Shown here piece by piece: positions 4,481 through 63,993 of a stretch of DNA of 64,000 nt; within the stretch, counting starts at the first letter, position 1; every line of letters begins with the position of its first letter. Source of the stretch: Candidatus Babeliales bacterium (lineage in GTDB: Bacteria > Babelota > Babeliae > Babelales > RVW-14); NCBI GenBank assembly GCA_019749895.1, contig JAIEPG010000005.1, forward strand, positions 73,371-137,370, given 5' to 3'. A program made the translations under genes and the position numbers. The notes under the pieces are model-generated. The model had not been told where the DNA came from, did not search any database, and worked only from the letters and a program-made list of their open reading frames with translations.

Positions 4481-5776
4481 ATGCTAAGTTCTATAAAACA
4501 AGCCCTCTGGGGCAAATTAACACGCGAAGAGTTTAAACGGTTTAGTATTTTATCGCTCACGCTCTTGCTCATTTTGGGCACCTACTGGCTCATGAAACCG
4601 CTTAAAGACGCGCTCTTTGCCAAAATGGTAGGCCCCGATTTTTATCCGTACGTAAAAATTCTTTCCTTCTGGTTTACCATCCCACTCATTTTGCTTTATT
4701 CCAAAGCGGTAGACCTATTTGAAAAGCAAAATTTGTTTTATATTTTTTCAGCTTTTTACGGCTCACTCTTTTTCATTATCGCACTCTTACTTGCCCACCC
4801 AACCATTGGCCTGGCCAACACCACGCCAAACAAGTACCGCATTTTAGGCTGGGCGCTGTATGTAACGATTGAAACTTTTGGCTCGCTCATGGTTGCTCTT
4901 TTTTGGGCTTTCGTTGCAAGTTCTACCAACACCGAGGCGGCAAAGCGTGGCTATGCATTAATTATTGCTGGCGCCCAAATTGGCACCATTGCTGGGCCCT
5001 ACATTGCCTTGAGTGCCCCAACCTTAGGTATCCCACTCCTTATGTTTTGCATTTGCGCTGGCGTAACTTTTATACCTGTTCTCATTAAAATTTTCACACA
5101 CTTCAACCCCCGCGCTGCCGAGCACCACGCACCGTCAGAAAAAACTGGGCCCATTGAAGGGCTTAAGTTACTGCTGACCAGGCCCTACCTGCTGGGCGTG
5201 ATGGGCGTTTCGGTTTTATACGACATTGTTGCCACCATTCTTGAATTTCAAATGGTATCGCTTGCCAACACTCAGTTTCATTCAACCGAACACTTGGCAC
5301 GTTTTCTCAGCTACTTTGGTTTAATGACCAACGGCTCAGCATTATTGATCTCACTGATCGGTACCAGCTTTTTAGTGCGCCGCTTTGGCCTGACTTTTTG
5401 TTTGGTTGTCTATCCGGTTATTACCGCGGTTGCTCTGCTGCACATTTTGTGGATACCTGTTTTATGGGTCGTGGTTGGCGCGCTCGTGGTAATAAAAAGT
5501 TTGAATTACGCACTCAATAATCCATGCAAAGAAATGCTCTACATTCCCACCAGCCGCGATATTAAGTTTAAAGCGAAGAGCTGGATTGATATGTTTGGTT
5601 GCCGCTCAGCCAAAGCTGGTGGCGGTTTTTTAAGCACCTTTTTTACACAAATGCATGAGCTGCTTTTTTATGGCCCACTGCTTTCGCTTGGTGTAGTCGG
5701 CGTTTGGATTATTATTGCGCTGTACACGGGCACAACACACCGTGCACTTGAAAAGAGTAATCGAACGATTGAATAA
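4481..5776 (+). CDS. ntt: ATP/ADP translocase family nucleotide transporter (TLC/NTT), paralog 3
   Basis: The ORF opens at GTG 4451. The ATG at 4481 is preceded by AAAGGAGA and aligns with the N-termini of paralogs 1 and 2 (MLSSIKQALWGKLTREEFKRF). Also present: CKEMLYIPTSRDIKFKAKSWIDMFGCRSAKA. Confidence 0.85.
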   Translation: MLSSIKQALWGKLTREEFKRFSILSLTLLLILGTYWLMKPLKDALFAKMVGPDFYPYVKILSFWFTIPLILLYSKAVDLFEKQNLFYIFSAFYGSLFFIIALLLAHPTIGLANTTPNKYRILGWALYVTIETFGSLMVALFWAFVASSTNTEAAKRGYALIIAGAQIGTIAGPYIALSAPTLGIPLLMFCICAGVTFIPVLIKIFTHFNPRAAEHHAPSEKTGPIEGLKLLLTRPYLLGVMGVSVLYDIVATILEFQMVSLANTQFHSTEHLARFLSYFGLMTNGSALLISLIGTSFLVRRFGLTFCLVVYPVITAVALLHILWIPVLWVVVGALVVIKSLNYALNNPCKEMLYIPTSRDIKFKAKSWIDMFGCRSAKAGGGFLSTFFTQMHELLFYGPLLSLGVVGVWIIIALYTGTTHRALEKSNRTIE

Positions 5777-5854
5777 ATCGAATAAAACTTTTCATTCTTA
5801 TTACCCATTTTTTTTGCTATCCTCTCGCACATTAATCACCTTTTTTTCAGGATA

Positions 5855-8419
5855 ATGTTGGTCACGATGGATTACAAAAAACAGTTTAATCATTTCATAA
5901 ACAAAGAGCTCAACAAACCACAGCAAGAGGCAGCAACGCAAAAGTCTGGCGCACTGCTGGTTATTGCTGGCGCAGGCTCAGGAAAAACGCGCGTAATTAC
6001 CGCACGCATTGCCAATTTAATTATTAACGAAAACGTAAGCCCAAAGGCCATTACTGCGCTCACCTTCACCAACAAAGCTGCCGAAGAAATGAAAGAGCGC
6101 TTGCACAAGTTTCTTGATGGCAACCACGAGCTACCGTTTGTTGGCACATTCCATTCATACTGCCTTCTGCTTTTGAGAACCAACCTGCATTATCTTTCAG
6201 CGCCCTACTTTTCAATTCTTGATGGTGACGACCAACTCAGCATCGTGAAACAAATTATAAAAAAAGGTGCTCTTGAAAAGCAGATCACGCCCTCGCAAAT
6301 TATGTACCAGCTATCGCAGTACAAAAATAAGTATTTCATGAATCCGCAAGAGGCTGAAAACACCGTAAGCCCGCTCATAAAAGAAATTTATCATGCGTAT
6401 GAGGCAGAAAAAACAGCCGCTCGCAGCTTTGACTTTGACGACTTGATTCTGGAAGTCTTAAAACTATTTAGAAAGAATAAAACGTTCAAACGCGAGTTCC
6501 AAGCAAAAATTAAGCATGTGCTCGTTGACGAATATCAAGATACCAGCCACACGCAGCACGAGCTGCTACGACAAATGGGCCTTGATGAGGATAAAAAATT
6601 TATTCTGGATTCACTGTGTGCCGTTGGCGATGAAGACCAGTCAATTTATTCATGGCGCGGGGCAACCGTTACCAACATGCTTAAAATTAAGCAGGAGTTT
6701 GCGCCGGTAACCACCGTTAAAATTGAACAAAACTATCGCTCCGTCACCCCGATTTTAGAAACTGCTAACCACGTGATTCAGCATAACACACAGCGAAACC
6801 CTAAAAAGTTGTGGTCGGACAAGCAGGGCAAAAATAGAATTTTATTGCTGACCTGCCGCTCGGGCGAGCAAGAAGCCGATGCCGTAGCGATCTTGTTAAA
6901 AAATTTGCCAGAAAATAAAAAGCTGAGCAACGTAGCCATTTTGTACCGCACACACTATCAATCGCGCTCGTTGGAAGAATCGCTCATTTATCACGCAATC
7001 CCCTACCGCATTATTGGCGGTATCCGCTTTTATGAACGCAAAGAAATTAAAGATGTTTTGGCGTACCTACGCTTGATGGTAAACCCCTTTGACCGCATCA
7101 GCCTGCTGCGCATTGTTAACTATCCGCTGCGCGGCCTTGGGCAAAAGTTTGAAGAACAGCTGATGGAAGCCTGGCAACAAAACCCACTGCTCGACTTTAA
7201 GCAACTAATTACGTATTTGATTTCAAGCGAAGGCGTTAGTTCGGCAAAGCAGCTGGCGCTCAAGCAATTTTTGGCAATCTATGCAACAGCACCACAAAAC
7301 GGCTCTCCGTCAGACTTAGTTGACCATGTGCTGACAAAAATTGATTACCTTAATTATTTGCGCACCACGCTGGACGCACAAGAAGCTGACACAAAAATTG
7401 AAAACGTACGCGAGTTGGTACAATCAATTGCCACGTTTGAAAAGAATTTTGACGGATCGCGCGAGTCGGTTAACCCTAACGACCCTTTTGCCAGTAGCTC
7501 AAACGCACCAACACTTGAAAACTTTTTGTACGAAGTTACGTTGATGCAAGAAAAGAGTGATAACGAAAACCGCGATGACCAGGTCTGTTTAATGACACTG
7601 CACGGATCTAAAGGCCTTGAGTTTGATATGGTTATTATTACCGGCCTTGAAGAAGAAATGCTGCCAAGCGGCAAAGCGCTCAACACCAACGAAGAACTTG
7701 AAGAAGAGCGACGCCTGTTTTATGTGGGCATTACGCGGGCAGAAGAACGCCTGGTACTTACGCACGCTGATTACCGCAACCGCTTTGGCACGATAGTGCA
7801 CCAAATTCCGTCACGCTTTTTGTCTGAACTTAAGCGGCCACTGGTTCAAGAGTTTAATGCGAGCAATGCCCACGCAACACAACTTAAAACACAGTTTAGA
7901 CGCTGGCTTGGTCTTTCTACTCAGTTTGACCAAAACATTCTTACGTTTACCAACTTTATACCACCAGACCGGTTGAGTGGAGAAAATACGGTTGAATCAT
8001 CTCCCCCTTCGAGACGCCTGTCTTCGCTAAAAGCTACGTCAGGCTCCTCAGGGCGAACGGGAAAAAGGATATTCTCCGAAAAACCAGAATACCTGATCCA
8101 TCAATCGACACAAAATAATAACAAGTACACAAGATCACAGGATCCAAATCGCTCGCTAAAGAACAAACAAGTTTCTTCCTCCGTTCGCCCTGAGGAGCAT
8201 GGCGTAGCTCGCAAGAGCTTAGACAGGCGTCTCGAAGGGTCTACAAACAAAACAGCCCCAACGAGCGAATGGTACAAAAACCAATTAGTTGAGCACAGCA
8301 AGTTTGGCAAAGGGATTGTAACGCACGTTGAAAAGGCCGATGGCGATGCGTACCACATTACCGCCATCTTTCAATCTGGGCCTAAAAAGATTCTTTCGAG
8401 TTTTTTGAAGAAGAGTTGA
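5855..8419 (+). CDS. uvrD: UvrD/PcrA/Rep-type superfamily 1 DNA helicase, with a repeat-derived insert in the C-terminal linker
   Basis: Motifs seen: AGAGSGKTRVIT (Walker A), VLVDEYQDTS, YRS, TLHGSKGLEFD, YVGITRAEERL. The C-terminal Tudor-like segment is VEHSKFGKGIVTHVEK. An alternative start is at 5867. Confidence 0.9.
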   Translation: MLVTMDYKKQFNHFINKELNKPQQEAATQKSGALLVIAGAGSGKTRVITARIANLIINENVSPKAITALTFTNKAAEEMKERLHKFLDGNHELPFVGTFHSYCLLLLRTNLHYLSAPYFSILDGDDQLSIVKQIIKKGALEKQITPSQIMYQLSQYKNKYFMNPQEAENTVSPLIKEIYHAYEAEKTAARSFDFDDLILEVLKLFRKNKTFKREFQAKIKHVLVDEYQDTSHTQHELLRQMGLDEDKKFILDSLCAVGDEDQSIYSWRGATVTNMLKIKQEFAPVTTVKIEQNYRSVTPILETANHVIQHNTQRNPKKLWSDKQGKNRILLLTCRSGEQEADAVAILLKNLPENKKLSNVAILYRTHYQSRSLEESLIYHAIPYRIIGGIRFYERKEIKDVLAYLRLMVNPFDRISLLRIVNYPLRGLGQKFEEQLMEAWQQNPLLDFKQLITYLISSEGVSSAKQLALKQFLAIYATAPQNGSPSDLVDHVLTKIDYLNYLRTTLDAQEADTKIENVRELVQSIATFEKNFDGSRESVNPNDPFASSSNAPTLENFLYEVTLMQEKSDNENRDDQVCLMTLHGSKGLEFDMVIITGLEEEMLPSGKALNTNEELEEERRLFYVGITRAEERLVLTHADYRNRFGTIVHQIPSRFLSELKRPLVQEFNASNAHATQLKTQFRRWLGLSTQFDQNILTFTNFIPPDRLSGENTVESSPPSRRLSSLKATSGSSGRTGKRIFSEKPEYLIHQSTQNNNKYTRSQDPNRSLKNKQVSSSVRPEEHGVARKSLDRRLEGSTNKTAPTSEWYKNQLVEHSKFGKGIVTHVEKADGDAYHITAIFQSGPKKILSSFLKKS
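8005..8239. repeat. GC-rich palindromic repeat element, copy A, inside the uvrD reading frame
   Basis: The left arm cccttcgagacgcctgtcttcgct..ctcctcagggcgaacgg (8005-8060) has its inverted copy ccgttcgccctgaggagc..agacaggcgtctcgaaggg at 8181-8239. The same motifs recur at 28107, 60302 and 63882. Confidence 0.8.
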
Positions 8420-8555
8420 GGAGAGCACGAAATTCCAAGTCCGCTTGCGCTTCAATCTCAGCAATCTCTTTTTTAGTAAGCCTCTTTTCAAGGTGTTCTT
8501 GAAAGCTCTTTGTTTTCATAGACATCTTCACTTTAGGCATGTTTCGATTTTTCAT
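8382..8555 (-). CDS. Small hypothetical ORF (57 aa from MKNRN...), possibly a remnant; overlaps the uvrD 3' end
   Basis: The ORF is 8382..8645. The internal ATG at 8555 follows an AGAGAAA purine run. KSFQEHLEKRLTKKEIAEIEAQADLEFRAL resembles the N-terminal leader of some XRE-type antitoxins, but no HTH domain follows. Confidence 0.25.
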   Translation of the reverse strand: MKNRNMPKVKMSMKTKSFQEHLEKRLTKKEIAEIEAQADLEFRALLNSSSKNSKESF

Positions 8556-8688
8556 TTTCTCTTTCAATTTAATTGTTTCTACCCCCAATTTTAGCACATA
8601 GCAAACTAAGAAAGAAGGGCTTGCAATTAATGGTAAAAACCCCAAAACAGAAGGCCATTAAATTTCCACTTGAAACGAATTAAAGCCT

Positions 8689-11221: not shown

Positions 11222-12760
11222 ATGAAAAAAAGCGCTTTTTTTGCAATTTTATTCACTTTTTTGCTAACCCATAACCTGCATGGCGCCCCAGCAGACCAGC
11301 CAACGCTGACCGTTCCTGCAAGCATGTGGTACGCCGCCATGGGCTCAACCAACTCATTGGCTCAGCTGCCACCAGCAGCATTGGTAGAACCGGACGAAAA
11401 CGGCCAAACACCCCTGCACATTGCAGCTCAGAACGGGCACCCAAATACTATTTTGTTTTTGCTGCAACAAGGCGCACCGGTTAACGTAGCAGACAAACAA
11501 GGTCTAACCGCCTTGCACCTGGCTGCTCAATTTGGCCAAAAGCCATGCGTACAAACGCTGCTCAACCAAAAGGCTGCTATCAACAGTGCTGGTACCACGG
11601 GCATAACACCGCTGCATTTGGCCGCCTTTTACGGCCAACTTGATGTAGTAAAACAGCTTCTTGAATACAAAGAATGTAACATTGAAGCGGTTACCAAAGG
11701 CAAATCTACCCCACTCCATTTTGCGGCTCAAAGCGGACAGACCGTCTGCGTAGAAGCATTGTTGGCAAAAAATGCCAAAGTTGACGTACGAAATACGCTG
11801 GACGAAACACCACTTTTACAAGCAATAAAAAATAATCAGCTAGCTAGCGCACAGCTCTTGCTTAACAAAAATGCTACTGTCAGTATTAGAAACAAACTTG
11901 GCTCAACGCCCCTGCATTATGCCGCTTTAAATAACTTTAACGAAGGAATCACCGCGCTCTTAAAAAAAGGCGCAACGGTAAACGTTAAAGACAAAAACGG
12001 CATGAGCCCACTGCACTACACTGCCGGCAACAATAATCTGGATGGCACCAAACAACTTTTGGAAAAAGGGGCCAGCATTAACACGGCAAACAACAATAAA
12101 AGCACGCCGCTGCACATTGCTGCCACTAACAATGCACTCGACTGCATCCCGCTCTTGCTGGCAAAAGGCGCCGACGTTAACGCGACAGACGCCAACAAAT
12201 CAACACCACTGCACTTGGCAGCCACCAACGGCCACGAGCTGGGCGTACGCTTGCTGCTGAGCAGCAAAGGAACCAAGGCTATTGGCATTGACGCTGTTGA
12301 TGCTGCTGGCGCAACACCGCTGCACCGCGCCGCCCAAAACGGCCACGTGACTGTTTGTTTTATGTTGATCATGAGCGGTGCAAACTTATTAACCCCAACC
12401 ACCAATGCGGCTACTGCAAATGCTAACAAAACAGCACAAACGCTGGCTGCGCAAAACGGGCACTATGCCCTGGCTAATGCCCTGCAGTACACACAAACCA
12501 ATGGCCAGCTGCCAAGCATTGCGGCTGCAGAAAGCGCGTGCACGCTCTGTGCGCAACAGTTCAACATTGCCGAAGTTGGCATGCAACTGCCGTGCGGGCA
12601 CATGATGCACCCAAACTGCCTGCAAACGTTTATTGCCCAACCTACTCAACTTGCCTACCAATGCCCAACCTGCCAAGCAGCTGCACAGGCGCAAGCGCAA
12701 GCAATTGCAGTTTTAATGGTTGCGGCAAGTCCAACCAATGAAGCGGTAGGTAAAAAGTAA
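11222..12760 (+). CDS. Secreted ankyrin-repeat protein with a C-terminal RING-H2 zinc finger (candidate E3 ubiquitin-ligase-like effector)
   Basis: Signal peptide MKKSAFFAILFTFLLTHNLHGAP, then about 10 ankyrin repeats (TPLH.AA..G....V..LL..GA.VN). At aa 440-484 the pattern is C-x2-C-x14-C-x-H-x2-H-x2-C-x14-C-x2-C (CTLC...CGHMMHPNC...CPTC). Confidence 0.85.
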   Translation: MKKSAFFAILFTFLLTHNLHGAPADQPTLTVPASMWYAAMGSTNSLAQLPPAALVEPDENGQTPLHIAAQNGHPNTILFLLQQGAPVNVADKQGLTALHLAAQFGQKPCVQTLLNQKAAINSAGTTGITPLHLAAFYGQLDVVKQLLEYKECNIEAVTKGKSTPLHFAAQSGQTVCVEALLAKNAKVDVRNTLDETPLLQAIKNNQLASAQLLLNKNATVSIRNKLGSTPLHYAALNNFNEGITALLKKGATVNVKDKNGMSPLHYTAGNNNLDGTKQLLEKGASINTANNNKSTPLHIAATNNALDCIPLLLAKGADVNATDANKSTPLHLAATNGHELGVRLLLSSKGTKAIGIDAVDAAGATPLHRAAQNGHVTVCFMLIMSGANLLTPTTNAATANANKTAQTLAAQNGHYALANALQYTQTNGQLPSIAAAESACTLCAQQFNIAEVGMQLPCGHMMHPNCLQTFIAQPTQLAYQCPTCQAAAQAQAQAIAVLMVAASPTNEAVGKK

Positions 12761-26182: not shown

Positions 26183-27298
26183 ATGAAGAAACTACTAGCA
26201 CTTATTGTTGCCGTTATTCTGAATAGCTCATGTCACGCACTTTCGCTACCCGACAACGTTACCCTTTCCCTAGACATAATACCTCAAGAAACTCTGCAAA
26301 AATTTATTTCGTGCACTAATCACTATTTTGAACGAGAACGCGCTATGGAATTTCCGGACGATATTGTAAGAGAATTAGCACAAGAAGAGATTGCAGAAAG
26401 CGAATTGGAGCTATGGCAGCTCTATGCACTAGCACATCATTTGGACTATGGCGTTACCGCACATATTTGCGCACGACAACATTTGAATAAAACGGAACAC
26501 CTACCACTTGAACAGCGCTTACAAGCGCCCTTCAACCTACCATCAGATGTTTTGCGTAAGCATTATTTTTTAATGACCAAAGATGCTTCAGTCATGAAAT
26601 ATACGGACGAAAATGGAAAACCCGTCACCCTCAGCATGAATCTTTTTGAATACATTTATGGCCGCCGCCTTGAAATTAACAATTCAATTCTAGAACTTAA
26701 TGGCTTTTTTTTGGACGATATTTCCGGCATTGAAGTTTGTTTGGACGATCCGGCCGCATTAGTTTTTGATTTTAGTGATAACCTTTTAAAAAAAATACCC
26801 GAAGGTATTTCATGCGCACAGCAAGTAACCAGCATCAACTTGTCTAATAACCAACTCACCGGCCTGCCTGAAGGTCTGTGCCAATTAAAAAAACTTGAAA
26901 AACTTGATATCAGAAACAATCACATCACTCACCTACCAAAAAATATTGGTAACTTAACAAACTTGTGGCGTCTTGATGCCGACAACAATGAAATCATTAG
27001 CCTACCCGACAGCATATGCGACTTAGAAAACGCACACTGGCTTTCATTTAGAAATAACAAACTCACCCAACTCCCAAATGATTTGTACAAGCTGGACAAC
27101 CTTGAACGGCTGTGTGTAAGCGACAACAAGATTAGTCGCTTACCAGACAATATCAGCTGGACACAAAAGTTACGGGTTTTTGATGCACACAACAACCCAC
27201 TTGAACAATTACCTAAAGATTATAAGCGCTTAACCAGAGTGCCGATGCTTAATCTTGAACCAACACCAGCACCAGAAGTAACTGGCAACAATAATTAA
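26183..27298 (+). CDS. Leucine-rich-repeat (LRR) protein with signal peptide
   Basis: MKKLLALIVAVILNSSCHA resembles a signal peptide. About seven 23-residue repeats follow the pattern L..L.L..N.L..LP..I..L..L (for example LSNNQLTGLPEGLCQLKKLEKLDIRNNHITHLP). Confidence 0.85.
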   Translation: MKKLLALIVAVILNSSCHALSLPDNVTLSLDIIPQETLQKFISCTNHYFERERAMEFPDDIVRELAQEEIAESELELWQLYALAHHLDYGVTAHICARQHLNKTEHLPLEQRLQAPFNLPSDVLRKHYFLMTKDASVMKYTDENGKPVTLSMNLFEYIYGRRLEINNSILELNGFFLDDISGIEVCLDDPAALVFDFSDNLLKKIPEGISCAQQVTSINLSNNQLTGLPEGLCQLKKLEKLDIRNNHITHLPKNIGNLTNLWRLDADNNEIISLPDSICDLENAHWLSFRNNKLTQLPNDLYKLDNLERLCVSDNKISRLPDNISWTQKLRVFDAHNNPLEQLPKDYKRLTRVPMLNLEPTPAPEVTGNNN

Positions 27299-28687
27299 CA
27301 ACGGTTCTGCCGGCAAGCGCAGGCGCGCATAACCACAGGCAAGCGAGAGCCCCACAAAAAGACCGCCAAACCAGATAGTTATAAAAAATGGTTCGCGTGG
27401 CACACGACCAAGCAGGCACAATAAAGCGTAGCCAACAAAACCCAGCAGCATCAACGCAAACAAAAATATTTCGCTATAAATAACACCATAAATTTTTTTG
27501 TTATTAAGCTGCGGCTTAAGAAAACGCATAAGCAAGTCTGAAACGCTGCGCTTGTGCGAATAAGCTGGCAAAACGCCACCAGAATCTATCACCAGCAATT
27601 CTGAAGAATATAACGCAAAAGTTGTTTTGACCATATTGCGCACAGCATGGACAATGCTATGACATGGATTTTTGAGCATATAATTTTTCGCAATTTGTCC
27701 TGCCACAACAGATTCTTCAACATCCAACAACGGCCGACCGGCCTGAGCACGCTTGAGTTGCAAAGCGGCTGCATACTCGCTTTGAATAATCTCTTGCGCT
27801 TGCTGATAAGAACTATCGTGCTGCTCCATGCACAAGCGCGCGGCAACATGATTTAAAAAATGAACGCCCGAAAGCGTGTGAAAAAAAAGATACCCGGTAA
27901 GTGCGTAGTTACGCCAGAGCCAAGGCAACACAACAGCAAACCAGCTCAGAAATAAAACACACGCATCTCGCACTTTGTGTGCCAGCGGCGCACGTGACAA
28001 AAAGAAAAATAACACAATCGAAGCACATAACGTGAAATGACCAACAGGTCTAATCAGTGAGGCAAGGCCCAAAGCAAGGCCTGCACTCATCCCGAGTGCC
28101 CGGCGTCCTTCGACAAGCTCAGGATGACCGGGTTTTGGCGTCTTGTCGGTCGTAGCCCGTTCTCCCTGAGCCTGTCGAAGGGCGGGCGTAGACGGAAGAT
28201 GGGTGTATCGAGGGACAAAAAACAATAAAAAAAGCGTAAAGAAAATAGCAAATAACGTCTCAGTCATAACCAAGCCAGAAAAAATCAGGTAGCCGGGGTG
28301 TACCGCCCCAACCAACGCAACCACACGCGCAACTAACATATTGCCAGGAAACAGTGTGAGCGATAAAAAAAAGAACAGAATGGGAAGCAAACTTGCAAGA
28401 ACAATTTGCGCACGTAAAACAGCGTACAAGCTTTGACCAAAGAGTTTATAACATAAAGCTAAAAACAAAGAATACCCCGGCAAACGATAAAATTGCGGCG
28501 CACCATCAGCGTGCACAATACCCTGCCCATTGCTCAACGAAAGCGCTAACTCATGATAATGCCCAGCATCAAAAGCAAGCTGACAGGGGTTCTCTTGTAA
28601 AAATGTATTAAAAAAAATAAGACGAATAACTAAAGAAAGAATAAAAATAATCGTTAAAAAAAAACTATGTTGTTTAATGCTGTTCAT
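27230..28687 (-). CDS. GT-C membrane glycosyltransferase, ArnT/PMT_2-like, carrying an in-frame repeat insert
   Basis: FDAGHYHELALSLSNGQGIVHADGAPQFYRLPGYSLFLALCYKLFGQS matches the paralog at 28674. The C-terminus also aligns with that paralog, so the 69-nt convergent overlap with the LRR gene looks real. Confidence 0.7.
   Translation of the reverse strand: MNSIKQHSFFLTIIFILSLVIRLIFFNTFLQENPCQLAFDAGHYHELALSLSNGQGIVHADGAPQFYRLPGYSLFLALCYKLFGQSLYAVLRAQIVLASLLPILFFFLSLTLFPGNMLVARVVALVGAVHPGYLIFSGLVMTETLFAIFFTLFLLFFVPRYTHLPSTPALRQAQGERATTDKTPKPGHPELVEGRRALGMSAGLALGLASLIRPVGHFTLCASIVLFFFLSRAPLAHKVRDACVLFLSWFAVVLPWLWRNYALTGYLFFHTLSGVHFLNHVAARLCMEQHDSSYQQAQEIIQSEYAAALQLKRAQAGRPLLDVEESVVAGQIAKNYMLKNPCHSIVHAVRNMVKTTFALYSSELLVIDSGGVLPAYSHKRSVSDLLMRFLKPQLNNKKIYGVIYSEIFLFALMLLGFVGYALLCLLGRVPREPFFITIWFGGLFVGLSLACGYARLRLPAEPLLIIVASYFWCWCWFKIKHRHSG
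28107..28183. repeat. GC-rich palindromic repeat element, short copy B, in frame inside a GT-C gene
   Basis: ccttcgacaagctcaggatgaccggg and the inverted cccgttctccctgagcctgtcgaagg flank a 24-nt loop. On the minus strand it is translated as ...LRQAQGERATTDKTPKPGHPELVEGR... Confidence 0.75.
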
Positions 28688-30260
28688 GAGAAATGTGCGA
28701 CGTTATAACACCAAAAAAATACAACCAATAATGCCACGCAAAAAGTATGATAAATGGCTCAATAGGCAAGCGCATGCGCGCATAACCCCCAGCCAAGGCA
28801 ATTACTATAAAAAAGGCCATGAACGGCAGCACCCTGCCAGTGACACACACCATTGAAACGCGGCGCCGAAAAACTCCCGTGAGCACAAACAAAACAAAAC
28901 CCAGTAGCATAAACAACATAGTTAAAATTTCTGTAAAAATTACTACGCGCAACCATAATTTGTCAGTCGCTGGAAGTACATAGCGCTTGATCATAGAAAG
29001 CAACGAACGGTCTGGCGCAAAGTAATCAAACTCTGGCCGGCCCGACTCAAGATACAAAAGCTCTGCTGAATATAATGAAAATTTAGTGCGAAACATATCA
29101 GTAAGCCATAACTTGAGCGAAGTCAACGGATACTGCTTAAAGTAGCTTATCGCTAACTTTTCCTGCATTTGGCAATGCTCATATTCGTTTGGTTTTCGGT
29201 GATATTCCTTTTTAAAAGCATGCTCTTTCTTGCGCACTTTTTTATGTACCACTTCGCGCGCACGCTCATATGAAATATGTTGCTCATGCGCAACCACACG
29301 CGCCGCAGAAAAATATAAAAAATGGCCTCCGGGCAGTGAGTGTAAAAAAAGATGGCCCACCAACATATAATTGCGTAACAGCCAAAATGAAACAGGCACA
29401 ATCCAAGCAATCACAAACAAAAGACTCTTCGCACATTTTTCGCGCCAGTAATCATGCGATAAAAAAATCATGATTATAGAAAGAGGCAAAAGATAATGCC
29501 CCACCGGCCGCACCATTGAAGCAACACCTAAAAAAAAACCAGCCCATGCCAAGCGCTGAAACACGTGCTGGCGGCACTCAAAAAGTTTTTTGTCAGCACG
29601 CGTCATGGTGTACATATTTTCAACATCTTGGCCATACATCTTTTCGTAAAGCTCTAAAAAGGAGGCGCCGGTACACGCTGGACGCGGCAAAAACAATGAG
29701 CTCGCAATCTTGTTCATCCAATTTTTTTCAGGTGGCAACGAACCATTTTCAGGGCTCGAGCAAAAAAAGAGGTGATTGACTGGCAAAAAAAATAATACGA
29801 AAAGCAAAAAGAAAAAGAGAAATAATGTTTCGGTCATAAAAAAGCCGGCATACAAAACCAAGCCTAAATGCACCGCGCTATAAAGCGAAGCCACACGCGC
29901 TAGCAATAACATTTTGGGAAAAAGCGCAAGGCTGAGTAAAAAAATAAGCAGGGGCAAAAGACTCGCAATAAAAACCTGAAACCAAAGCGCCGTGGTTTTT
30001 TCTTGTCCAAAAAGAGCATAGTGCACTGCCAAAAAAACTGGGTAACCTGGAACGCGATAAAAAGCTGGCCTGCCATCTGCATTTGCAACACCCTTGCCCG
30101 CTACAATGCTGGTTGCCAACTGGTGGTACGTGGCAGAATCAGCTTGCCAAAAGCGATTCTCTTTGCTCAAATAACAACAAAAAACAAGAGCTCGTACAAT
30201 AAACGAAAACAAAAAAAGAATCGTCAGAAATTTTTTTTCTTTTTTTAATATTCCTATCAT
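28674..30260 (-). CDS. GT-C membrane glycosyltransferase, ArnT/PMT_2-like
   Basis: ADSATYHQLATSIVAGKGVANADGRPAFYRVPGYPVFLAVHYALFGQ. Polytopic. It overlaps the downstream paralog by 14 nt. Confidence 0.7.
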   Translation of the reverse strand: MIGILKKEKKFLTILFLFSFIVRALVFCCYLSKENRFWQADSATYHQLATSIVAGKGVANADGRPAFYRVPGYPVFLAVHYALFGQEKTTALWFQVFIASLLPLLIFLLSLALFPKMLLLARVASLYSAVHLGLVLYAGFFMTETLFLFFFLLFVLFFLPVNHLFFCSSPENGSLPPEKNWMNKIASSLFLPRPACTGASFLELYEKMYGQDVENMYTMTRADKKLFECRQHVFQRLAWAGFFLGVASMVRPVGHYLLPLSIIMIFLSHDYWREKCAKSLLFVIAWIVPVSFWLLRNYMLVGHLFLHSLPGGHFLYFSAARVVAHEQHISYERAREVVHKKVRKKEHAFKKEYHRKPNEYEHCQMQEKLAISYFKQYPLTSLKLWLTDMFRTKFSLYSAELLYLESGRPEFDYFAPDRSLLSMIKRYVLPATDKLWLRVVIFTEILTMLFMLLGFVLFVLTGVFRRRVSMVCVTGRVLPFMAFFIVIALAGGYARMRLPIEPFIILFAWHYWLYFFGVITSHISHEQH

Positions 30261-56208: not shown

Positions 56209-56679
56209 ATGACCATAAAAAGTATAATTTTTCTCATGATTACTCTCACACTCACAACAAAGACTATGCCAGCGGCACTACGGACTGATATTAATGCCGT
56301 TGATAGTAGCGGCTGGACACGATTACACCTTGCTGCCAGCAATGGCAATGAGAGAGAAGTAGAATTACTCATTGCAGCTGGCGCATATGTTGATGCTCAA
56401 AACTATGCCGGCTGTACACCTCTTCTTTTTGCTGCCATGCATGGCTATGACAAAATTGTAGCATTACTTCTTACCAAAGCAGATCTCAGCACGTATGTCG
56501 GCTGGACACCACTGCATACTGCTGCTCTCAATGGCCACCTTGCCTGCGTACAATTGCTTGTTGGCGCTGGCGCAGACATTCATGCTAAAGACAGACATGA
56601 TCGAACACCACTTGATTGCGCTCGTGAAAATGGTCATACCAAAATTGTAGAATTACTTGAAGCTGCAAGAGTTTCTTGA
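56209..56679 (+). CDS. Ankyrin-repeat protein with signal peptide
   Basis: MTIKSIIFLMITLTLTTKTMPAA, then WTRLHLAASNGNEREVELLIAAGAYVDAQN and similar repeats. Confidence 0.85.
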   Translation: MTIKSIIFLMITLTLTTKTMPAALRTDINAVDSSGWTRLHLAASNGNEREVELLIAAGAYVDAQNYAGCTPLLFAAMHGYDKIVALLLTKADLSTYVGWTPLHTAALNGHLACVQLLVGAGADIHAKDRHDRTPLDCARENGHTKIVELLEAARVS

Positions 56680-56703
56680 TCTATTTTTTTCACCAGCTAT
56701 GCT
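56676..56703 (+). promoter_or_regulatory. Conserved promoter cassette P2 (TTGATC-N16-TATGCT), overlapping the upstream stop codon
   Basis: See P1. The TTGATC contains the TGA stop of the gene ending at 56679. Confidence 0.55.
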
Positions 56704-56742
56704 GCTTGCAATTAAAAAACCAGCACGGATAAGAAAGTTTTT

Positions 56743-57564
56743 ATGACAAATATACCCACCACACTCACGCTTCATGAAGCTGCCAAGATTGGCGATATCA
56801 AAGCTCTCCAAGAACTTATTGCCACAGGCGCTGATGTTAACAGTCCTGATGAAGAAGACTGGACACCCCTGCATTTTGCTGCCCTGGAAGGTCATGCCGC
56901 ATGCGTAGCATTGCTCATTGCTGCCGGCGCGCAGGTGAATGCCCGCAATGAAAATAGCGAAACACCACTTAATTTTGCTTGCCAAGAAGGCCATGCAGAA
57001 ATTGTAACATTACTTATTGCTGCCAATGCGGATGTTAATATCACTGACAACACCAGCTGGATGCCACTTCATGATGCTGTTTACAATGGCTACCCTGCAT
57101 GCGTACAATTACTTATTGCTGCTGGCGCACATGTTAACACAGCAGACAACCAACAAAGCCAAACCCTACTTCATGGAGCTGCACAATTCGGCCATGCCGG
57201 AGTAGTAGAATTACTTCTTGGCGCTGGCGCAGATGTTGATGCTCGTAACGGTGACCATGCCACACCTCTTCATCTGGCCGCTGACCAAGGTCACACAACT
57301 TGCGTGGAATTACTTATTGGCGCTGGAGCAACTCTTGATGCTTGTGATAATGATGGCGCCACGCCACTTCATTTCGCAGCCACCAATGGCCACATCAGCG
57401 TTGTAACAGTACTTGTTGACGCACTCTCCAACGCAGGGAAAAGTGTTAATACACGCACTAAAACAGGCAATACACCACTTGCTTTGGCAATTCAAAACCG
57501 CAATTCAAAAACCGTAAAATTACTGCTCACATTGTCTGAAACTACATCAGAACTCATACACTGA
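56743..57564 (+). CDS. Ankyrin-repeat protein (273 aa)
   Basis: MTNIPTTLTLHEAAKIGDIKALQELIATGADVN, followed by about seven repeats. Confidence 0.85.
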   Translation: MTNIPTTLTLHEAAKIGDIKALQELIATGADVNSPDEEDWTPLHFAALEGHAACVALLIAAGAQVNARNENSETPLNFACQEGHAEIVTLLIAANADVNITDNTSWMPLHDAVYNGYPACVQLLIAAGAHVNTADNQQSQTLLHGAAQFGHAGVVELLLGAGADVDARNGDHATPLHLAADQGHTTCVELLIGAGATLDACDNDGATPLHFAATNGHISVVTVLVDALSNAGKSVNTRTKTGNTPLALAIQNRNSKTVKLLLTLSETTSELIH

Positions 57565-57583
57565 GTACTAAAAAGAGAATTTT

Positions 57584-57976
57584 ATGGCCAACATGCCCAC
57601 CACACTAATGCTGCATGAAGCTGCCAAGATTGGCGATATCAAAGCTCTCCAAGAACTCATTGCCGCAGGCGCCAATGTTAATGCTCATGACAAACGAGGC
57701 TGGACACCGTTGCACGAAGCTACTGTCTATGATTTTAAAGAATGTGTACAATTGCTTCTGGCCGCTGGTGCAAACGTTAACGCTGGTAACAATTTTGACG
57801 TCACGGCACTTCATTGGGCCGCCGTCCACGGCTACGCCGAACTGGTACAACTACTCATTGCTGCCGGAGCAAAAGTTGATGCTGTCACTAAAACAGACGA
57901 AACTCCACTGAGCTTGGCTGCTTCTCATAACTACACCGCCGTTGTAGAAATACTCAAAGCCGCTGGAGCTTCTTGA
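57584..57976 (+). CDS. Ankyrin-repeat protein (130 aa)
   Basis: MANMPTTLMLHEAAKIGDIKALQELIAAGANVN. The N-terminus is nearly identical to that of the gene at 56743. Confidence 0.85.
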   Translation: MANMPTTLMLHEAAKIGDIKALQELIAAGANVNAHDKRGWTPLHEATVYDFKECVQLLLAAGANVNAGNNFDVTALHWAAVHGYAELVQLLIAAGAKVDAVTKTDETPLSLAASHNYTAVVEILKAAGAS

Positions 57977-58000
57977 TCTATTTTTCCCACTAGTTATGCT
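57973..58000 (+). promoter_or_regulatory. Conserved promoter cassette P3 (TTGATC-N16-TATGCT), overlapping the upstream stop codon
   Basis: See P1. The context gcttcttgatctattttt is shared with P2 and P4. Confidence 0.55.
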
Positions 58001-58055
58001 ACGCAGGCAACATAAAACTAGGACATCAACAACACAAACAGGAAATTTTTTTATC

Positions 58056-58448
58056 ATGAACATAAAATTTCTCACTTCACTCATGCTTGCTTTTACGCTA
58101 ACAACAAGCGCCATGCCTGCTGCATCAAGCACAACTTTTGGCAAAAAAGAAAGAGCTCTAGGCCATGCTGCCAAAACTGGTAATAGCAAAAGGCTAAAAA
58201 GGCTTATTGCTCAGAAAGCACCTATTAATGCTTATGACAATTTGGGCAGGACAGCTCTTCATCATGCTGCCGACTGCGGTCATATCGAAATCGTAAAATT
58301 ACTTATTAAAGCCAAAGCAGATGTTGATGCTCGCGATAACTACGGCTTGGCACCAATTAATTTGGCCGCCTTTCATCGCCACAAAGCAATCGTAAAATTA
58401 CTTAAAACTGCAATGTCACAGTCTATCTCCTATAATCTCACCGACTAG
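58056..58448 (+). CDS. Ankyrin-repeat protein with signal peptide
   Basis: The ATG at 58056 gives MNIKFLTSLMLAFTLTTSAMPAA, parallel to the N-terminus of the gene at 56209. The ORF opens at 57996. Confidence 0.8.
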   Translation: MNIKFLTSLMLAFTLTTSAMPAASSTTFGKKERALGHAAKTGNSKRLKRLIAQKAPINAYDNLGRTALHHAADCGHIEIVKLLIKAKADVDARDNYGLAPINLAAFHRHKAIVKLLKTAMSQSISYNLTD

Positions 58449-58549: not shown

Positions 58550-60238
58550 ATGCTCATAATAATCCCCATGTCTGGGGTTGGAAATCGGTTTATGCAAGCA
58601 GGCTATAGCGACCCAAAGCCACTCATCAACGTTGACGGCAAGCCAATTATTGAGCACGTGGTCAACCTCTTTCCCGGCGAACACAATTTTATTTTTATCT
58701 GCAACCAAGAACATTTACAAACAACAGAAATGTACAATGTACTGCGGCGCATAGCCCCTTCCGGCACTATTGTGAGTATTCCCAAGCACAAAAACGGACC
58801 AGTTTACGCCGTCTCAAAAGTTTTTAATCTGATCGACAATGATGAAGAAGTAATCGTTAATTATTGCGATTTTTCAATGTACTGGGACTATAACAACTTT
58901 TTGCACCACACGCGCACGCGCAATGCCGATGGTGCCATTCCTGCCTACAAAGGTTTTCATCCGCACATGTTGCACGATCCAAATTATGCATTTATAAAAG
59001 ACCAAAACCAGTGGCTGCTGGAAATAAAAGAAAAGGCTCCATTTACCACCAATAAAACGAATGAGTATGCGTCGACTGGCGCGTACTATTTTAAGCGCGG
59101 TTCTTTACTAAAAAAATATTTTCCAGAACTAATTGAACGTGATATTAACGTTAACGGCGAGTACTACGTAAGTTTAATTTACAACCTGCTCAAACGCGAT
59201 GGGCTCAATGTTTCGGTATACGAAGTACAGCATATGCTGCAGTGGGGAACTCCTGAAGATCTTGAAGAATATGTTGGCTGGTCAGCGTATTTCAAACGTG
59301 CTGCAGAGCAAGTAGAACAAAAAAAAATAACACACGACCTCATGCTCATACCTTTGGCGGGGCGCGGACAACGCTTTGTACAAGACGGCTACGCCGACCC
59401 CAAGCCACTTATTCCTGTCAGCGGCAAACCAATGATTGTGCAGGCGGCAGCAAGCTTGCCAGCAACAACCGAACAGATTTTTGTTTGTTTGAACGAACAT
59501 TGCCAACGCTACCCGCTCGAGCACGCCATTAAAGAAACGTATCCACATGCTGAGATAAAAAAACTGGATCACGTGACTGAAGGCCAGGCATGCACCTGCG
59601 AATTTGGTTTACAAAACATTGATCCAGAAAAATCACTGGTTATTGGCGCATGCGATAACGGCATGCTGTGGAACCAGCAGAAATATCAAGACCTGGTCGA
59701 CGACAAAAGTGTTGATGTTATTGCCTGGAGCTTTAGAAATCATCCATCAAGCAACAAAAACCCACAGATGTACGGCTGGCTGGCCGTTGACCACAATAAC
59801 GTTGTTACCAACGTTTCGGTAAAGGTCCCACTCTCAGCAAACCCATCACACGACCATGCAATTGTGGGCACGTTCACGTTCAAAAAAGCGGCCTACTTTT
59901 TGCAAGCGGCGCAAAACTTGCGCGCCAAAAATATTCGCGTGAACAATGAATTTTATGTGGACAGCTGTATTAACCAAGCTCTGGCAATGGGCCTCACGGT
60001 AAAAGTTTTTGAGGTGGATCACTATGTCTGCTGGGGCACACCCAACGACTTGCGCACCTTTGAATATTGGCAAAGTTTCTTTCACAAATGCACGTGGCAC
60101 CCGTACCGCTTAGAAAAAGACGCAACGGTAGCACCGGAAAAGATTGCAGAGCTTGATATGAAATATCGTATGTTTACACAACCAAACCGCGAACCATTGG
60201 TAACAGGCAAACAGCAGCAGGTTAGCCAAGCATTGTAA
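58550..60238 (+). CDS. Tandem double-domain sugar-nucleotidyltransferase-like (GT-A/NTP_transferase fold) protein
   Basis: There are two homologous halves. Half 1: IIIPMSGVGNRFMQAGYSDPKPLINVDGKPIIEHV ... QWGTPEDLEEY. Half 2: LMLIPLAGRGQRFVQDGYADPKPLIPVSGKPMIVQ ... CWGTPNDLRTFEYW. Confidence 0.65.
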   Translation: MLIIIPMSGVGNRFMQAGYSDPKPLINVDGKPIIEHVVNLFPGEHNFIFICNQEHLQTTEMYNVLRRIAPSGTIVSIPKHKNGPVYAVSKVFNLIDNDEEVIVNYCDFSMYWDYNNFLHHTRTRNADGAIPAYKGFHPHMLHDPNYAFIKDQNQWLLEIKEKAPFTTNKTNEYASTGAYYFKRGSLLKKYFPELIERDINVNGEYYVSLIYNLLKRDGLNVSVYEVQHMLQWGTPEDLEEYVGWSAYFKRAAEQVEQKKITHDLMLIPLAGRGQRFVQDGYADPKPLIPVSGKPMIVQAAASLPATTEQIFVCLNEHCQRYPLEHAIKETYPHAEIKKLDHVTEGQACTCEFGLQNIDPEKSLVIGACDNGMLWNQQKYQDLVDDKSVDVIAWSFRNHPSSNKNPQMYGWLAVDHNNVVTNVSVKVPLSANPSHDHAIVGTFTFKKAAYFLQAAQNLRAKNIRVNNEFYVDSCINQALAMGLTVKVFEVDHYVCWGTPNDLRTFEYWQSFFHKCTWHPYRLEKDATVAPEKIAELDMKYRMFTQPNREPLVTGKQQQVSQAL

Positions 60239-60301
60239 AGACACAAATTCGATAATTTGAAGAACACCTATCAACTTGTATAATGGTCGATTTGTTTAGT
60301 A

Positions 60302-60468
60302 CCCGTTCGTCCTGACTCTTCGGCAGGCTCAGAGCTAAAGGCCCTTCCCGCCTGCCCTGAGGAAGAACTCGCAGAGTTCTGTCTCGAAGGGTCGAAGGGT
60401 CGGGTACGAAAATGGCAACCAACAACACCCGCTTCGCCCTATCCTTCGACAAGCTCAGGACGAACGGG
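60302..60468. repeat. GC-rich palindromic repeat element, composite copy C, between convergent genes
   Basis: cccgttcgtcctga at 60302 pairs with tcaggacgaacggg at 60455-60468. Internal modules are ccctgaggaag..gtctcgaagggtcgaaggg and ccttcgacaagctcagga. Confidence 0.75.
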
Positions 60469-60516
60469 CTACGCGGGCTCATCACACCCTCGCCAAAATT
60501 ACGAGAAGAAGTTTGA

Positions 60517-63881: not shown

Positions 63882-63993
63882 CCGTTCTCCCTGAGGAGCC
63901 CGTAGGGCGTCTCGAAGGGCTAGAGATTTATTTTGTTTTTCATGCCCGACCCTTCGAGACGCCCGTCTTTGCCGGGCTCCTCAGGGAGAACGG
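63882..63993. repeat. GC-rich palindromic repeat element, copy D, 40 nt upstream of a GT-C gene start
   Basis: ccgttctccctgaggagcccgtagggcgtctcgaaggg (63882-63919) has the inverted copy cccttcgagacgcccgtctttgccgggctcctcagggagaacgg at 63950-63993, with an AT-rich loop of about 30 nt between them. Confidence 0.8.

Follow-up and report, generated by a model that had tools for sequence, protein, structure and literature searches.

The 64-kb stretch of contig JAIEPG010000005.1 from a Candidatus Babeliales bacterium analyzed here (the window) carries a gene for a UvrD/PcrA-type superfamily 1 (SF1) helicase, and within its open reading frame (ORF) lies a 235-nt block made of two inverted copies of a palindromic unit and the spacer between them. 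The deduced helicase matches the Pfam families UvrD-helicase (PF00580; residues 19-282, 7e-76) and UvrD_C (PF13361; residues 289-638, 3e-71) and aligns over residues 17-674 with the PcrA structure 1pjr (E 2.6e-132), features that characterize a predicted member of the UvrD/PcrA/Rep SF1A group. Its best orthologs are annotated as Dependentiae/Babeliales (TM6), and the adjoining genes of the window encode ATP/ADP translocases and ankyrin-repeat proteins.

An AlphaFold2 prediction of the helicase, built on a 40-sequence alignment, is confident for the core and for a five-stranded C-terminal domain (residues 811-847), and gives residues 705-803 a predicted local distance difference test (pLDDT) score below 50 and no secondary structure. 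The 235-nt block codes for residues ~718-795, inside this predicted disordered linker. A preliminary description, made from the letters of the DNA, had placed the block between the helicase motifs and the C-terminal segment and had expected a linker there to tolerate insertions. Indeed, the block follows the end of UvrD_C (residue 638 by Pfam, 674 by the alignment with 1pjr) and precedes the conserved C-terminal β-domain, and the linker is hypervariable, in length as well as in sequence, among 30 aligned orthologs.

The two arms of the block measure 56 and 59 nt and lie 120 nt apart, in agreement with the inverted arms of 55-59 nt first reported. They are reverse complements with 49/59 aligned positions identical, the differences being a 3-nt indel and a few inner substitutions, and a repeat search splits their complementarity into two sub-blocks, one of 24 nt at 92% and one of 29 nt at 93%. 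None of 100 shuffles of the window that preserved its dinucleotides contained the 19-nt terminal and subterminal arm motifs. The RNA fold that the preliminary description had proposed as a check yields one long hairpin of -113.3 kcal/mol for the 235 nt, against a shuffle mean of -52.5 (z = -13.4; 200 shuffles). The description of the palindrome as GC-rich applies to the left and right arms (0.61 and 0.63) and not to the spacer (0.37), the whole helicase gene being at 0.45. The helicase frame runs through the block without a break, and its translation is exactly the one given before. An invertible coding segment was considered and rejected, as the flipped block gains a stop codon.

Coordinates of the repeat units and of their host gene (nucleotide positions in the window; parts of the helicase in residues)
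Feature	Position	Strand	Details
UvrD/PcrA-type SF1 helicase gene, host of the element	5855..8419	+	ORF, 854 aa
Parts of the helicase			core to ~residue 690; disordered linker 705-803; C-terminal β-domain 811-847
Left unit, long subtype, 56 nt	8005..8060	+	CCCTTCGAGAC-[GCCTGTCTTCGCTAAAAGCTACGTCAGGC]-TCCTCAGGGCGAACGG; translated PSRRLSSLKATSGSSGRT
Spacer, 120 nt, AT-rich, unique sequence	8061..8180	+	translated in frame
Right unit, 59 nt, family in reverse orientation	8181..8239	-	+ strand CCGTTCGCCCTGAGGAGC-[ATGGCGTAGCTCGCAAGAGCTTAGACAG]-GCGTCTCGAAGGG; translated VRPEEHGVARKSLDRRLEG
Short-form inverted dimer	28106..28182	-	units 28106-28131 and 28157-28182, 25-nt spacer; encodes ...ALRQAQGERATTDKTPKPGHPELVEGRR...
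Cluster of at least 4 whole or degenerate units	60303..60467		between convergent genes 58550-60238 (+) and 60517-62181 (-)
Inverted dimer, opposite arm order	63882..63993		63882-63919 reverse, 30-nt spacer, 63950-63993 forward

The sequence comparisons indicate that the repeated unit is very probably the single arm (26-59 nt) and not the 235-nt block, which would be an inverted dimer around a unique 120-nt spacer. This conclusion follows from three observations: the spacers of the dimers are unrelated, the locus of the ortholog with 89% identity (P0001, in JAIERW01; L001) carries a solo unit, and that of the ortholog with 80% identity (P0002, in CP064957; L002) carries none, both loci being syntenic with the window. 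The spacers of 12 dimers, taken from the window and from related loci, range from 8 to ~190 nt and have no mutual similarity; that of the helicase resembles none of the 11 others, nor anything in the 1.7 Mb of related DNA compared. Units that neighbor each other at a distance of up to 250 nt are predominantly inverted (55 inverted, 12 direct), and those more than 1 kb apart divide into 17 and 18. Heterotypic dimers, in which a long arm lies beside a short one, also exist. The preliminary description had seen the block as a dispersed repeat that colonized a coding region: the dispersal and the kept frame stand, and the 235-nt block gives way to the arm as the element.

The model of the first description, a single 235-nt element of the kind of a miniature inverted-repeat transposable element (MITE) or a Rickettsia palindromic element (RPE), with terminal inverted repeats and an interior of its own, transposed whole into the helicase gene, can be confronted with the same data. 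The arms do resemble terminal inverted repeats, and both have a common inner-hairpin subtype that is absent from the L001 unit. The spacer cannot be aligned to the linkers of L001 (p 0.79) or L002 (p 0.22), which align with each other (p 0.006). The window linker measures 291 nt, or 176 nt minus the arms and 56 nt minus the whole block, against 139 and 138 nt for the unit-free linkers of the relatives, which would fit replacement or insertion of the block as a whole. On the other hand, no second copy of the spacer occurs in the window or the related loci, the 11 other dimer spacers all differ, long-arm/short-arm dimers occur, and the solo unit of L001 coincides exactly in position with the right arm and is followed on its right by orthologous sequence. 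Moreover, the length of 235 nt is not divisible by 3, and no clear target-site duplication is seen at the edges of the block (8004/8240). We consider transposition of the whole block quite unlikely. The converse proposal that the spacer is host linker, identified by homology, was also set aside, as it has no statistical support and the comparison of lengths is ambiguous.

The left arm could instead have arisen as a local inverted duplication, by fold-back or template switching, of a pre-existing right unit. The right unit is the older one in that it is also present in L001, the inner motif CTGTCT...AGCTACG is common to both arms, and inverted dimers are the dominant arrangement of the family. 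However, the left arm is identical at 54/56 positions to a copy in the BacA gene of another Babeliales genome (L083 6575-6630) and at 52/56 to a further copy (L119), compared with only 49/59 to its own partner, and many dimers combine unrelated inner hairpins or differing unit types. Local duplication thus appears very improbable, and two separate units of a dispersed family remain our preferred description of the arms.

The unit follows the scheme CCGTTCG-CCC-TGAGGAGC-[variable hairpin]-GCGTCTCGAA-GGG. Its short form, of 26 nt, reads CCGTTCG-xxx-TGAGCYTGTCGAA-x'x'x' on the best-folding strand, with TGAGCYTGTCGAA as a conserved loop; in the extended form, present in the helicase gene, an extra hairpin splits this loop into TGAGGAG...CGTCTCGAA. 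The 7-nt tail CCGTTCG is unpaired in 223/234 units. Stem 1, of 3 bp, covaries in sequence (for example CCC/GGG, TGG/CCA and TGC/GCA): its triplets are Watson-Crick complementary in 132 of 146 short units, with 8 pair types, compared with 57.5 +/- 4 in shuffles. The inner hairpin likewise has a perfect terminal stem of at least 5 bp in 64 of 107 distinct middles, against ~2.5% of shuffles, and these stems have 40 different sequences, so that the stem varies between lineages yet stays paired. Stem 2 is always GAGG/TCTC on one strand, where it includes a G.T pair, and has an A.C mismatch on the other; the fold would therefore be strand-specific and form as single-stranded DNA or RNA. The short unit leaves 5/6 reading frames open, and each long arm 3/6.

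In the sphingomonad copies (loci L084-L201), the loop of the inner hairpin is the 13-nt loop of the short unit, GCCRT-TTCGACAAGCTCA-AYGGC. The units are thus nested, as though the loop of one had received another. Two other ideas about the unit were abandoned. By eye, its core (CUGAGGAG...CGUCUCGAA) resembles that of a hammerhead ribozyme (CUGAUGAG...CGAAA); the GAA does not directly follow stem II, and Rfam finds no ribozyme. A dependence of inner-hairpin GC on host GC was dropped because the correlation (Pearson 0.29, Spearman 0.14) is weak and driven by the lowest-GC genomes only.

The helicase site differs among relatives. In the ortholog with 80% identity neither arm is present, and in that with 89% identity a solo 44-nt unit occupies the right-arm position and the left unit is absent; the 30 nt that follow the right unit are orthologous between the window and L001 (p < 0.0005). 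The two right units share identical outer segments of 20 and 16 nt at a synonymous divergence (dS) of 0.8, have unrelated inner hairpins and agree at 37/59 positions overall. Unit-derived peptides occur in 2 of 120 helicase orthologs (P0001 and P0010), in their tails and never in the core. P0010, a Dependentiae ortholog of 54% identity, has an independent dimer in its UvrD linker, from another subclass (TGG/CCA triplets, CCGCTCG tail). The alignment with orthologs thus supports the lineage-specific insertion that the preliminary description had proposed, and it contains no ortholog that is free of such repeats elsewhere and shares a homologous segment at this place.

At every site examined, the presence or absence of units differs between close relatives. 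These patterns fit ongoing replacement, loss and gain combined with strong constraint on the outer segments, and they do not fit passive inheritance. The copies at one site may turn over by re-insertion or by gene conversion.

The surroundings of the helicase gene vary as well. A different cargo lies in each genome between the helicase gene and the last of the ATP/ADP-translocase (TLC) genes: a 79-nt gap with no cargo in the window (5776-5855), a Pol-beta nucleotidyltransferase/HEPN pair in JAIERW01 (L001 9229-9913), and GIY-YIG and PD-(D/E)XK genes in CP064957 (L002 6929-9454). On the other side, an 87-aa ORF (8382-8645, minus strand) is convergent with the helicase gene, the two sharing 38 nt at the 3' end of the latter.

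Over the 59 codons 3' of the block, the window and L001 differ by a dS of 0.80 and a nonsynonymous divergence (dN) of 0.029 (omega 0.036). Such strong purifying selection on the downstream domain implies that the frame through the block is the selected frame and that the insert is read through. The units and spacer would then be translated as ~78 extra disordered residues of an intact helicase.

As the source is a metagenomic assembly, we also weighed the possibility that a repeat-induced chimera or a mis-join in the metagenome-assembled genome (MAG) mimics an in-frame insert. In favor of such an artifact, no called product on record equals the exact full-length helicase, with either start codon, and short-read assemblies end at the left arm. 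Contigs from three other sequencing runs, which carry a neighboring gene, are nevertheless 100% identical to the window from 8006 onward, through 8419 and beyond. These three independent assemblies hold both arms and the spacer, and each stops at the left arm's outer edge, where a short-read assembly graph can be expected to fork at an inverted repeat; the left junction 8004/8005 is therefore documented by the source assembly alone. The continuous frame, the orthologous sequence on either side, the purifying selection downstream and the independent presence of a unit at the same position in L001 further argue against an artifact, which we regard as extremely improbable.

The window contains at least 10 units at 4 sites, and the three sites outside the helicase gene at which arm motifs had been noted earlier all hold units of the family (see table). 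The dimer of the first of these lies in frame within the gene of a GT39-like membrane protein (27230-28687, minus strand), as a ~35-aa insert that is absent from orthologs; a homolog from a distant Babeliales genome (P0143, 43% identical) has, in the same loop of the protein, a different insert of the same repeat family. At the 60.3-kb site, the relative with 89% identity (JAIERW) has no intergenic DNA because the genes overlap, and that with 80% identity (CP064957) holds a short-form inverted dimer at the same place. The dimer at the 63.9-kb site, near the end of the window, lies 40 nt 5' of the GTG with which gene 62178-63842 (minus strand) starts, and both relatives show just a short gap between the corresponding genes.

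Some features of these sites merit mention in their own right. An 87-aa ORF at 60222-60485 (minus strand) consists almost entirely of unit translations (PFVLSLSKD..., ...LALSLPKSQDER), has no Pfam match and is likely a source of spurious hypothetical proteins. The adjacent two-domain NTP-transferase (58550-60238) has homologs in Paenibacillus, Bacteroidota and Nitrospiraceae that are 63-64% identical to it; this value is near that found among many Dependentiae proteins and hints at horizontal transfer of the surface-polysaccharide gene region. Two regions of the window contain adjacent pairs of paralogous membrane-protein genes (27230-30260, GT39-like, 485 and 528 aa; 60517-63842, two of 554 aa), and in each the units lie in or flank only one of the paralogs.

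Copies of the unit are found outside the window too, several of them in frame in proteins, as would be expected if the repeat that the preliminary description reported is a dispersed one. In low-GC loci, 17 of 64 units are within open frames of at least 200 codons; this holds for most of the units of Babeliales-like genomes and for almost none of those of Legionella. In the small Babeliales-like genomes, many units occupy loops and linkers of genuine proteins in frame. The hosts of in-frame units, identified by Pfam, include UvrA, with a dimer (JBDRFY01), the linker of FtsK (JAIERW01), BacA/UppP, with a dimer of 56-nt arms around a 103-nt spacer (JAIERW01), a DegT-family aminotransferase of a Babeliales-like genome, and CcmF in a gammaproteobacterium. 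Both orientations of the unit relative to the host gene occur, and several genomes (JAIERW01, JBDRFY01, CAZMGV01 and Legionella MAGs) have several unit loci each.

The extended pattern, with 31 specified bases, has at least 120 matches in contigs representing one genome per species. The matches listed include Babeliales, Legionella, Legionellaceae, Coxiellaceae, Binatia, Methylomirabilis, Lysobacteraceae and several MAGs, together with cultured Sphingomonas, Sphingopyxis and Novosphingobium. As judged from these pattern matches, the unit family is not peculiar to the Babeliales lineage and several phyla have it. About 30 outer nt of the unit are unchanged from genomes of 30% GC to genomes of 70% GC. 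A collection of plasmids yielded three unannotated sphingomonad matches, and in a scan of metagenomes the long arm subtype occurred in one contig only.

The general pattern of the unit occurs at no fewer than 80 loci in viral or prophage contigs of 45-73% GC. In phage contigs, units are located between structural genes, and inverted unit pairs 1.2 kb apart enclose phage structural genes and no transposases. A parent insertion sequence was dropped as a candidate, since the inverted unit pairs that are 0.4-3.5 kb apart enclose phage capsid or structural genes, or ordinary genes. Among viral and prophage loci (L013 5490-5655, L081 6000-8585, L074 374-1650), one contains a tandem array with a 70-nt period, composed of two unit types and an identical 18-nt spacer, and others have inverted pairs that bracket single structural genes, for example that of an HK97-type capsid. 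In Legionella and Legionellaceae MAGs (L094, L118, L127, L129, L138, L158 and others), a 42-nt unit with the inner stem GCGTGC/GCACGC lies within a larger repeat whose conserved flanks (...ctttagctgcttagaaag [unit] attagggaaaaatggctaaactcgag...) suggest a composite MITE-like element.

The units share several traits with the repetitive extragenic palindromic (REP) sequences of the GTAG- and CGTC-tagged super-families, which form mostly inverted dimers and are mainly intergenic, between convergent or co-directional genes (PMC3733652). These REPs can also lie wholly inside ORFs, in frame, where they encode 7-80 residues, and such intragenic copies are notably frequent in genome-maintenance genes, among them a UvrD/REP helicase (R. 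palustris RPE_2137), uvrA, uvrB, uvrC, dnaE2, polA and recB (PMC3733652). The CGTC-1 to CGTC-4 families combine a CGTC tag and a CCA tail with a stem of 8-9 bp that begins with A/T and a loop of 4-5 nt; they have no associated transposase, and include Rickettsia RPE-4 (CGTC-4) and RPE-6 (CGTC-1); CGTC-1 encodes the peptides VIPAKAGI and SFPRKRES (PMC3733652).

Like the intragenic GTAG/CGTC REPs, the units described here are short hairpins with an unpaired conserved end, are mostly arranged as inverted dimers with an in-frame subset, and are found in genome-maintenance genes (UvrD in three lineages, UvrA and FtsK); as with the CGTC families, no dedicated transposase was found nearby in the loci searched. 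They are REPs in the general sense, as hairpin-forming imperfect palindromes in which pairing is kept, with folds that are consistent across units, extended forms of up to 59 nt and a predominance of inverted dimers. They do not belong to either super-family: the unpaired end is CCGTTCG, CGTC/TGTC lies inside the conserved loop, and GTAG/CTAC is found beside only some units. Unlike the CGTC families, the unit combines a CCGTTCG tail with a stem 1 of 3-4 bp, a conserved 13-nt loop and an optional nested hairpin. The signature peptides of the units do not appear in the tables of intragenic REPs, and Dependentiae are not among the phyla of that survey (PMC3733652).

The preliminary description had also likened the repeat to RPEs. 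In behavior the likeness holds, as the units are dispersed palindromic repeats that lie in frame in genes that stay intact; in sequence it does not extend to RPE-4 and RPE-6, whose peptides (WIPWSNHGMT, VIPAKAGI, SFPRKRES) differ from those encoded here (PSRR..SSGRT, VRPEE..RLEG), RPE-1 being outside this comparison. According to Ogata et al. in 2000 and 2002, RPEs are said to insert in frame in many unrelated protein genes of Rickettsia, an obligate intracellular bacterium with a small genome. Tolerant segments of the proteins carry the extra residues, and the host genes stay functional. RPE-1 is a single element of ~100-150 bp, in contrast to the units of 26-59 nt described here, whose dimer interiors are unrelated. 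To our knowledge, RPEs do not occur outside Rickettsia and its relatives; the present unit is found in several phyla.

The helicase dimer also recalls REPINs, which reportedly consist of two inverted REPs forming a long hairpin (Bertels and Rainey in 2011, Nunvar in 2010, Ton-Hoang in 2012). REPINs are thought to move as single-stranded DNA by means of an HUH tyrosine transposase acting in trans. They are extragenic and replicate as a doublet, hence the conservation of the spacer among the members of a family; the systems formed by REPs and REP-associated tyrosine transposases (RAYTs) are usually species-specific and vertically inherited, and a cognate RAYT flanked by repeats is expected. The helicase pair is likewise an inverted doublet, and departs from REPINs in the unrelated spacers of its family, in its location within a gene and in the occurrence of its unit across phyla; no cognate RAYT was seen in the 1.71 Mb searched. 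Nor do the units conform to MITEs, as their arms are inverted and the interior is not common to the copies. Further similarities exist with QMITE1 and QMITE2 of Coxiella burnetii, repeats of 150-400 bp with 2-11 nt direct repeats at their ends; QMITE2 contains a REP, and some copies overlap with ORFs or lengthen them in frame, as in enhC (PMC5896051). Like the present units, QMITEs are small, non-autonomous repeats of an intracellular bacterium, in their case one of the Legionellales, and some of them lie in coding sequence.

The unit motif is absent from the text of the QMITE paper (PMC5896051) and from that of the RepRanger paper. Rfam gave nothing at the gathering threshold for the window and four unit-rich loci, and, with a permissive scan of 7950-8300 included, the only sub-threshold match was one to L31-leader (E 0.41), at the level of chance. 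Full-text literature searches for the DNA strings of the unit and its signature peptides matched only unrelated primers. The units thus appear to constitute a REP-like family that is uncatalogued in Rfam and the searchable literature, which is no proof that it was never described. Intragenic REPs and RPEs that decorate proteins are known; the sequence family and the host phylum, Dependentiae, appear to be new.

The units are dispersed, multi-copy and structured, occur mostly as inverted dimers and are open in most frames. We propose that they are non-autonomous selfish elements that would spread as single-stranded hairpins. Their invariant outer segments, the tail and the split loop, would be recognized in trans, and the inner stem would need only to pair. 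The best analogy for the mobilizing enzyme may be the HUH mechanism of REP/RAYT systems, and the genic copies would be survivors that kept the frame in insertion-tolerant segments.

Several results weigh against this proposal or qualify it. The predicted stability of single units exceeds that of shuffles by a small margin only (z -0.4 to -1.9), so that the case for structure comes from covariation, and the loci were gathered with CCC/GGG-type search patterns and form a biased sample. Translation of the insert is deduced from selection downstream and not from observation. A tblastn search with 12 queries, comprising RAYTs and terminal-inverted-repeat-associated tyrosine transposases (TIRYTs) rebuilt from a published alignment, found no match at E <= 1e-3 in the window and 200 loci (1.71 Mb, 311 units). 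An association with RAYTs was accordingly dropped for these 1.71 Mb. Comparison of the helicase, 60.3-kb and 63.9-kb sites provided no clean pair of a filled and an empty site that would define the ends of the element or a target-site duplication: the helicase linker is too diverged, the 60.3-kb site in the relatives consists of overlapping genes or is occupied, and the window ends in the 63.9-kb site. Finally, the spacer is not demonstrably host linker, and the block may have replaced ~80 nt of ancestral linker.

Alternatively, the units could be mainly functional cis-elements under selection, in which case the hairpin in the helicase mRNA would modulate expression; possible roles include hairpins for mRNA stability or processing, protein-binding sites similar to those of E. 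coli REPs (for gyrase or integration host factor, IHF), and sequences resembling uptake signals. The invariance of the outer segments, both across phyla and between the window and L001 at the dS given above, would agree with such roles, as would the strand-specific structure with its fixed G.T pair, and a hairpin of -113 kcal/mol in an mRNA is likely consequential. The neighbors of the intergenic copies are convergent or co-directional genes, an arrangement typical of REPs (PMC3733652). Yet units come and go among close relatives at all sites examined, copies lie in unrelated proteins and in phage genomes, and both orientations relative to the host gene are found. The uneven distribution also speaks against a general function, a reasoning already applied by Di Nocera et al. 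(PMC3733652). We therefore judge a predominantly cis-acting function unlikely, and retain the view of the units as putative selfish elements.

A more far-reaching form of this proposal, which we put forward tentatively and regard as possible rather than probable, is that the units are uncatalogued, promiscuous nested-hairpin replicators that would be driven by a non-RAYT activity, shared horizontally, perhaps by way of phages or within amoebae, inserted into each other's loops and prone to decorate genome-maintenance proteins. Insertion of units into each other's loops would explain the nested forms. As part of the same tentative scheme, the 31/31 outer bases shared by Babeliales, Legionellales, Sphingomonadales, Binatia, Methylomirabilis and phage contigs would constitute the recognition code.

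The most interesting aspect of the unit is the invariance of its outer segments across phyla. Invariant outer segments combined with an inner stem that varies freely and stays paired are what would be expected of a code of sequence and structure recognized by a trans-acting enzyme, and this pattern could help to explain the spread of REPs that lack a transposase. Dependentiae/TM6 provide a third setting, after the RPEs of Rickettsia and the REPs of proteobacteria, in which hairpin repeats join proteins. Since repair proteins are hit again, in an intracellular host with a reduced genome, the repair-gene bias noted in 2013 becomes testable in an independent lineage, as does the question of whether it reflects targeting or the tolerance of long disordered linkers. 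On a practical level, the units contaminate protein databases with spurious ORFs and with odd peptides (LRQAQGER, PFxLSLSK, VRPExxEG, SSGRT), and they break short-read assemblies at their edges, as at position 8006.

Two further repeat-rich parts of the window are distinct from the unit family. Between 38950 and 48930 lie five tandem copies of ~2.1 kb, mutually 65-89% identical, which look like an array of paralogous genes on the minus strand. The ankyrin-repeat gene clusters (11400-12350 and 56340-58380), of a kind typical of amoeba-associated bacteria, yield many of the direct-repeat families of the window.

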